Under the pieces are notes generated by a model. The model saw nothing but the letters and a program-made list of their open reading frames with translations, did no database searches and was not told the DNA's origin. A DNA stretch of 20,009 nucleotides from a virus (lineage: Duplodnaviria; Heunggongvirae; Uroviricota; Caudoviricetes). This document shows positions 1-926 of the stretch, piece after piece. The DNA lies in IMG/VR virus record IMGVR_UViG_2617270955_000003; one strand, 5' to 3'. Position numbers and translations under genes: made by a program. Within the stretch, counting starts at the first letter, position 1, and each line of letters begins with the position of its first letter.

Positions 1-199
1 GCCCCAGCGTCGCCATAGTGCGTTCACCGAATACGTGCGCAACAACCGTCTTCCGGAGCCTGTCATACGCGTAAAACAGCCAGCGCTGGCGCGATTTAGC
101 CCCGACGTATCCCCACTGTTCGTCCATTTCCGCGCAGACGATGACGTCACTGCCCGGCTGTATGCGCGAGGTTACCGACTGCGGCCTGAGTTTTTTAAA
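1..199 (-). CDS. insB: IS1 InsB' transposase frame, partial (expressed as InsAB' fusion by -1 frameshift; continues beyond window start)
   Basis: Minus-strand translation of 1..190 gives ...[63 protein letters not shown], matching IS1 InsB as I recall it; lies just downstream of insA past the A6C slippery motif. Confidence 0.75.
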
Positions 200-447
200 T
201 GGCGGAAAATCGTGTTGAGGCCAACGCCCATAATGCGGGCGGTTGCCCGGCATCCAACGCCATTCATGGCCATATCAATGATTTTCTGGTGCGTACCGGG
301 TTGAGAAGCGGTGTAAGTGAACTGCAGTTGCCATGTTTTACGGCAGTGAGAGCAGAGATAGCGCTGATGTCCGGCGGTGCTTTTGCCGTTACGCACCACC
401 CCGTCAGTAGCTGAACAGGAGGGACAGCTGATAGAAACAGAAGCCAC
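172..447 (-). CDS. insA: IS1 InsA transcriptional repressor / transposase N-terminal protein
   Basis: 91-aa [45 protein letters not shown]... recognised as IS1 InsA (zinc-finger Cys pairs plus HTH). Confidence 0.95.
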
Positions 448-502
448 TGGAGCACCTCAAAAACACCATCATACACTAAATCAGTAAGTTGGCAGCATCA
501 CC

Positions 503-926
503 TGTAGCCTCTGCCGCTTTCACCTGGAAAGAAATGAATGCCCTGAAACATGCCATTGATCCGGCATATCGTGGTGGGCCGAAATACCGCTGGGCATTCA
601 ATGATGCCACATTGCAGACTATTGAAGAGATGGAGGATGGACAGAAACGCCCGTTATGGCTGCCGGATATTGCAGGCGGTACGCCGGCTACTGTGCTGGG
701 GATCCCTTATGTTATTGATCAGGCTATTGACGGGATTGGTACCGGAAAAAAATTCATTTTCCTGGGGGATTTCAACCGCTTTATCATTCGCCGCGTTACT
801 TATATGGAACTGAAACGTCTGGTTGAGCGTTATGCTGAGTTTGATCAGGTGGCATTTCTGGCTTTCCATCGTTTTGACTGTGTGCTGGAAGATGTGGCAG
901 CCATCAAGGCGCTCACTGGCAAATAA
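503..926 (+). pseudogene. Major capsid protein (HK97-fold), 3' fragment only; 5' part displaced by the IS1 insertion
   Basis: Open frame begins exactly at the IS1 end with no start codon or RBS; translation (...RPLWLPDIAGGTPATVLGIPYVIDQA...FLGDFNRFIIRRV...) resembles the C-terminal region of HK97-type capsid proteins; stop at 924..926. Confidence 0.75.

Follow-up and report, generated by a model that had tools for sequence, protein, structure and literature searches.

An IS1 element beside a capsid gene remnant probably marks a 9-kb deletion in an ST131-type prophage of Escherichia coli

In E. coli K-12 the cryptic lambdoid prophages Rac, Qin and DLP12 have kept early, moron and tail-fibre genes and lack a full morphogenesis set. 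They are far more eroded than the prophage described here, in which a single recent event appears to have struck an otherwise near-complete genome. Deletions promoted by IS1 were reportedly described in gal by Reif and Saedler in 1975. An insertion sequence (IS) without a target-site duplication (TSD) beside a large deletion indicates either an adjacent deletion or recombination between IS copies (PMC11708052). In the IS150 deletions of the E. coli long-term evolution experiment treated there, one intact IS stands at the deletion point without a TSD, and its flanks are collinear with an undeleted reference in which they lie several kb apart, as is also the case at the present locus. The described cases of IS-promoted deletion have a chromosomal operon as target, whereas here the target is a prophage late region; and in contrast to the cases in PMC11708052 the two-step history is a reconstruction, since the analysis turned up no genome of an earlier stage that has only the IS.

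A second group of related systems is formed by the head-defective lambdoid prophages of O157 Sakai, which have been shown experimentally to excise and to be rescued in trans (PMC2669165). These prophages (Sp4, Sp9, Sp13, Sp15 and others) resemble the present unit in having lost head-formation or packaging genes while int and the att sites are kept, and some of them still excise to circles with an attP joint (PMC2669165). Helper packaging was shown experimentally for the Sakai prophages; the present unit, unlike them, is without the whole lysis cassette and probably without cos.

The window, that is, the whole stretch of DNA that was analysed (20,009 nt; IMG/VR record IMGVR_UViG_2617270955_000003), is 100% identical from position 502 to position 16400 to the prophage of the ST131 reference strain EC958. 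The parent prophage is temperate, about 41 kb long, has an HK97-type head and a lambda-type tail, and is integrated at tRNA-Ser beside mtfA; the main text of the EC958 paper gives no coordinates for a prophage at this mtfA-tRNA-Ser site. EC958 carries it in near-unchanged form, and so do several hundred further complete genomes of E. coli. Deposited phage genomes, among them Evi (LR597642.1), PhiR49_2 (PV340570.1) and the vB_EcoS series, share the capsid-connector segment (window 502-1400) at 99.6-100% identity, and because the head module is near-identical to these records we take the intact capsid gene to be the ancestral, working state. The EC958/ST131 prophage, Evi and PhiR49_2 have the full 405-aa capsid gene and a 9-kb segment with lysis, terminase, portal and protease genes, which the deleted unit lacks.

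The retained late genes at 1003..18077 (+) were assigned from Pfam hits and from the annotation of identical DNA in strain TUM1857 and in EC958. They comprise the head-tail connector, head closure, gp10-like and gp17-like genes, the tail tube, chaperone and tape measure genes, the tail tip genes, gpJ, lom, an IS200C insertion and the tail fibres. The IS200C transposase gene (13826-14284) lies between lom and a tail-fibre gene, and since EC958 also has it, this insertion is older than the IS1 deletion. Within the 802-aa tail-fibre gene, direct repeats of about 241 bp (83% identity) occur as an overlapping pair (window 14948-15377). In one assembly (GCA_025584385.1; locus L025, 2222-4615) the tail-fibre gene of the same prophage is split by a DDE_Tnp_1 transposase gene and a beta-lactamase gene, an interruption that looks like a chromosomal insertion of the ISEcp1/blaCTX-M type. 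Besides its connector genes, complete tail module, lom and tail fibres, the remnant still has int, Q and the early and immunity region.

The window begins 266 bp inside an IS1 element of the IS1B type, the first 502 bp of which occupy positions 1..502 (-) as the reverse complement. The left terminal inverted repeat (IRL, GGTGATGCTGCCAACTTACTGAT) can be read directly at 480..502 (-) and was identified by repeat comparison. The insA gene lies at 172..447 (-), with Pfam matches to Zn_ribbon_InsA (3e-21) and HTH_Tnp_IS1 (1.7e-30); the A6C frameshift motif at 190-196 (-) corresponds to IS1 position 307, and the start of insB' occupies 1-171 (-) as an open frame. Window positions 1-502 are 100% identical to a complete 768-bp IS1 of TUM1857 (L001:14735-15502), in which insA, insB' and the A6C frameshift motif lie between imperfect terminal repeats. 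The terminal inverted repeats of this copy are about 23 bp long (GGTGATGCTGCC... and GGTAATGACTCC...), and its two ends agree at 21 of the first 30 positions. A 768-bp element with such repeats, and with insA and insB' joined by an A6C programmed -1 frameshift, belongs to the IS1 family, and the PGAP label for the TUM1857 copy is 'IS1B family transposase, programmed frameshift'. Among E. coli records 9,463 contain matching IS1 sequence, and TUM1857 alone holds about 20 copies of IS1.

The IRL end of the element at 502 adjoins an open frame at 504..926 (+), the boundary being sharp at 502|503 with one base ambiguous, and the juxtaposition of an IS1 end and an open frame in the original prediction is thus confirmed. 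The frame translates into 140 aa and a stop codon, and it was likewise read correctly as the C-terminal 140 aa of an HK97-fold capsid protein. Pfam family PF05065 (Phage_capsid) is hit with E = 4.9e-33 at profile positions 144-279 of 280, and the translation corresponds exactly to residues 266-405 of the 405-aa EC958 (ST131) capsid protein with 100% identity. The full-length EC958 protein aligns with the Rhodobacter capsulatus capsid protein Rcc01687 (6tba/6tb9) over residues 88-402 (E = 5.7e-22) and with HK97 gp5 (1ohg) over residues 123-258 (E = 3e-4). Hence the fragment by its Pfam match, and the full-length protein by its alignment to solved HK97-family capsids, both fall within the HK97-fold family. 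The same evidence bears on the idea that the 140-aa frame belongs to a different gene and is no capsid remnant at all. Nothing except the in-frame TTG and ATG start candidates speaks for this, while the identity to the annotated capsid residues, the Pfam score and the alignment to 6tba over the same region all speak against it, and we consider its probability negligible.

Only residues 266-405 (profile positions 144-279) are left of the HK97 fold, and because the EC958 capsid aligns to gp5 over residues 123-258, the gp5-aligning stretch is entirely missing from the fragment. With less than half of the fold, the fragment cannot be a working capsid protein. The prediction that it has neither start codon nor ribosome-binding site holds in part. 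Start candidates do exist in its frame, namely a TTG within the end of IS1 (489) and, preceded by ggaaagaa, an ATG (534), and public gene callers predict a 130-aa ORF from the fragment. On the other hand, no promoter-like site directed into the fragment was found, the sole site detected being the inward-reading one of IS1 itself at 495-468 (-). In TUM1857 and FCI23 PGAP describes the fragment as 'incomplete; missing N-terminus', and in public records it is already marked as a pseudogene. A terminator-like hairpin with a T-run just 3' of the capsid stop codon (946..972, +) is native to the phage and is the same in the intact EC958 prophage. Apart from this locus, the capsid gene is split without any IS into two predicted ORFs of about 258-284 aa and 130 aa at loci L008 and L011-L017. 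Such splitting is seen in many assemblies and probably reflects frameshifts at two or more places in the gene, whether real or introduced by sequencing errors.

The left side of the IS1 was read from public assemblies with the same right junction, the window itself starting inside the element. Four assemblies share the junction: TUM1857 (Japan), FCI23 (Colombia, blood), GCA_027086925.1 and GCA_964038035.1. The first two were found among 5,426 complete E. coli genomes and the other two by means of the 130-aa ORF. Over the extent compared, two of the assemblies are 100% identical to the window for 10.9 kb, and TUM1857, apart from a single 1-base indel, follows it for 16.4 kb. All four have the complete IS1 of 768 bp. 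Its far end adjoins ...ctccttatggactttg, the last 12 nt of iraM, in each of them, the left junction reading ...tggactttg|GGTAATGACTCC, and the other end adjoins capsid codon 266; the breakpoint on the iraM side sits in a hairpin loop. In EC958 the two breakpoints fall at L002:5934|5935 and 15001|15002, so that 9,067 bp are missing. The gene order in TUM1857 and FCI23 is Q, tRNAs, DUF3927, IS1, capsid fragment and connector; in EC958, 13 genes lie between the same landmarks. The deleted segment comprises, on the lysis side, iraM, a DUF1737 remnant, the holin gene, ydfR, the endolysin (lysozyme) gene, a spanin-type lysis gene and iss, and on the head side an HNH endonuclease gene, the small and large terminase genes, a 53-aa ORF, the portal and prohead protease genes and capsid codons 1-265.

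At the junction IS1 no target duplication of 8-10 bp was found in any of the four assemblies, and the flanking 9-mers differ (tggactttg and tgtagcctc). Applied to the three control IS1 copies of L004 and L005, the same script detected a perfect 9-bp duplication in each case, and the missing duplication is therefore meaningful. A simple insertion would leave flanks that are adjacent in the uninterrupted target; in the four assemblies they are 9,067 bp apart. What is found is a single intact IS without TSD whose flanks are collinear with an undeleted reference, as expected for an IS-associated deletion. Because the flanks lie 9,067 bp apart in the intact prophage and no target duplication is present, we conclude that the IS1 marks a 9,067-bp IS1-associated deletion and not a simple insertion. 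The left junction of the window is taken from the four assemblies, and we put the probability of this reading at roughly 0.87. The deletion bounded by IS1 is an ordinary case of IS-driven prophage decay, a known kind of event.

The interpretation in the original prediction, a simple IS1 insertion truncating the capsid gene, is thus only partly supported. Of the three features that it expected upstream of the window, the other IS1 end is present in all four assemblies, whereas the 9-bp duplication and the 5' portion of the capsid gene are missing from all four. A simple insertion could still apply to the window source itself, which would then be an undeleted precursor with an otherwise intact capsid gene. 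In that case the rest of the IS1 (266 bp) would be expected upstream of the window, next to it TGTAGCCTC and the 5' half of the capsid gene, with the element flanked by a 9-bp duplication. Such a precursor would show an identical right junction, the region upstream of the window lies outside the sequence, and the window does not come from any of the four deleted assemblies, as its 3' end differs. However, no such genome occurs among the 5,426 complete genomes, where TUM1857 and FCI23, the sole carriers of the right junction, are both deleted, and the two further assemblies found by way of the 130-aa ORF are deleted as well; we therefore regard an undeleted source as improbable.

IS1 is a multicopy element and as such a classic cause of misjoins, and a false join across a collapsed IS1 repeat was accordingly weighed. 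Against such an artefact stands the agreement in both junctions of four assemblies, each from a different project (Japan, Colombia and two others), and the carriers include two genomes of the complete-genome collection and a 4.7-Mb contig. Moreover, the FCI23 element differs from the window at four positions, and we consider an artefact very improbable. The four FCI23 differences (positions 17, 107, 110 and 123) include three within 17 bp, while the flanks of its IS1 carry only two 1-base indels relative to the window. This pattern suggests gene conversion among IS1 variants, or a mixing of IS1 copies in the assembly.

As to how the IS1-associated deletion arose, the most likely route, to which we give somewhat better than even odds, is that IS1 would first have inserted at one breakpoint and would then have made an adjacent deletion to the other by intramolecular replicative transposition. 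Adjacent deletion and recombination between IS1 copies leave identical sequence. RecA-dependent recombination between two independently inserted IS1 copies of the same orientation would likewise give a product without TSD, the route is recognised in PMC11708052, TUM1857 has its score of IS1 copies to draw upon, and the Q-to-lysis module has been struck repeatedly by IS1 in other lambdoid prophages (L004, L005). It requires, however, two insertions and one recombination event, and a genome with either single insertion was not seen among the complete genomes; we hold this route to be possible but the less probable of the two. A precursor of the favoured adjacent deletion, with IS1 and TSD at either breakpoint and the segment intact, was also absent among the 5,426 complete genomes, as was one with IS1 at both breakpoints, which recombination would call for. 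SCU-176 and 2017.18.04CC, which have an IS1 copy close to the left breakpoint, were examined for candidate precursors; these were rejected, each being an independent simple insertion, with a 9-bp TSD, into another lambdoid prophage.

The 9-kb segment is intact and in one piece in 365 of the 5,426 complete E. coli genomes, as against the two genomes with the deletion, which are the only ones with either of its junctions. The capsid 5' half is present in exactly one copy per genome among the matches listed (full-length, at least 98.9% identity), and a genome of this type that loses it therefore has no near-identical spare. The IS1-capsid junction had no match in IMG/VR, the GTDB species representatives, phage records or plasmids. 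In two other genomes, NZ_CP080116.1 (Dog168) and NZ_CM169486.1 (EC15), the same 9-kb lysis/head segment is interrupted by other IS elements, ISCro1 (IS66 family) and ISEc52 (IS3 family), which represent independent IS hits on the prophage. Unrelated lambdoid prophages have independent IS1 insertions with 9-bp duplications at L004 12017-12714 and at L005 6798-7495 and 12401-13098, each within the Q / tRNA / DUF3927 / iraM module. It seems that this AT-rich region close to the late promoter is a recurrent target of IS1.

At the 3' end of the window an attP-type core, consisting of the 3' ~62 nt of tRNA-Ser (18430..18491, +), joins a tail-fibre arm directly to an integrase arm. Window 15872-18506 follows the tail-fibre end of the TUM1857 prophage, 18430-20009 is 100% identical to the integrase end of the same prophage, and the two arms have the ~62 nt at 18430 in common; no complete tRNA is present at the joint. 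TUM1857 has zinT where the window has the attP joint, and FCI23 also differs at the 3' end. No 100% match to the joint was found in complete E. coli genomes, phages, plasmids or IMG/VR; exact matches to the proteins beside it were missing from the records or lay in ordinary attL/attR settings. A related phage forms a tandem double lysogen in noe1104, where the same joint is contiguous, as it is in the metagenome contig L037 (98.9% identity); because it occurs contiguously in these two independent places we regard it as natural. It implies that in the source of the window the prophage either had a second unit in tandem or was excised as a circle.

The tyrosine integrase gene at 18544..19569 (-), coding for 341 aa and 100% identical to the attL-side integrase of TUM1857, would then be the start of a second prophage unit or belong to the same unit closed into a circle. 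A second prophage copy may rescue the deleted unit. That the IS1-deleted unit acts as the satellite-like half of an inducible tandem with an intact copy, or as a self-circularised remnant that responds to Int, we find unlikely. PGAP flags the integrase as 'frameshifted' in TUM1857, FCI23 and noe1104. A frameshift as a second defect was rejected, since the same GH...LIYDRK C-terminus and stop codon occur in the independent phage contig L037. In the assembly collection 9,698 blocks index the 341-aa product. The integrase looks complete, and the flag is probably spurious.

The original prediction that the prophage is defective for particle formation agrees with the truncated capsid gene, but the loss extends far beyond that gene. 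In TUM1857 and FCI23 the gene set of a self-sufficient prophage (lysis, terminase, portal, protease and capsid) is absent between int and the tail fibres, and no intact capsid gene was found elsewhere in the prophage of either strain. Because the lysis, HNH, terminase, portal and protease genes have also been lost, the defect is much larger than a broken capsid gene, and judged from its gene content the remnant would by itself be unable to make proheads, to cut and package DNA or to lyse the cell. The cos site of HK97-like phages is situated between the genes for HNH and terS. By analogy, cos was probably lost within the deletion, and since the HNH-terS gap lies inside it, helper capsids probably could not package the remnant, a defect that would go beyond the original prediction, which allowed for complementation.

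The deletion marks a rare variant of the ST131-type prophage (two of 5,426 complete genomes), with isolates from Japan and Colombia. It removes cargo of relevance to the host, namely iss (serum survival) and iraM (RpoS stabilisation), and with the lysis cassette gone the carriers would no longer be killable by induction of the deleted prophage. For annotation this means that the locus is best described in terms of a 9-kb IS1-associated deletion that has crippled the prophage, and not as a single disrupted gene.
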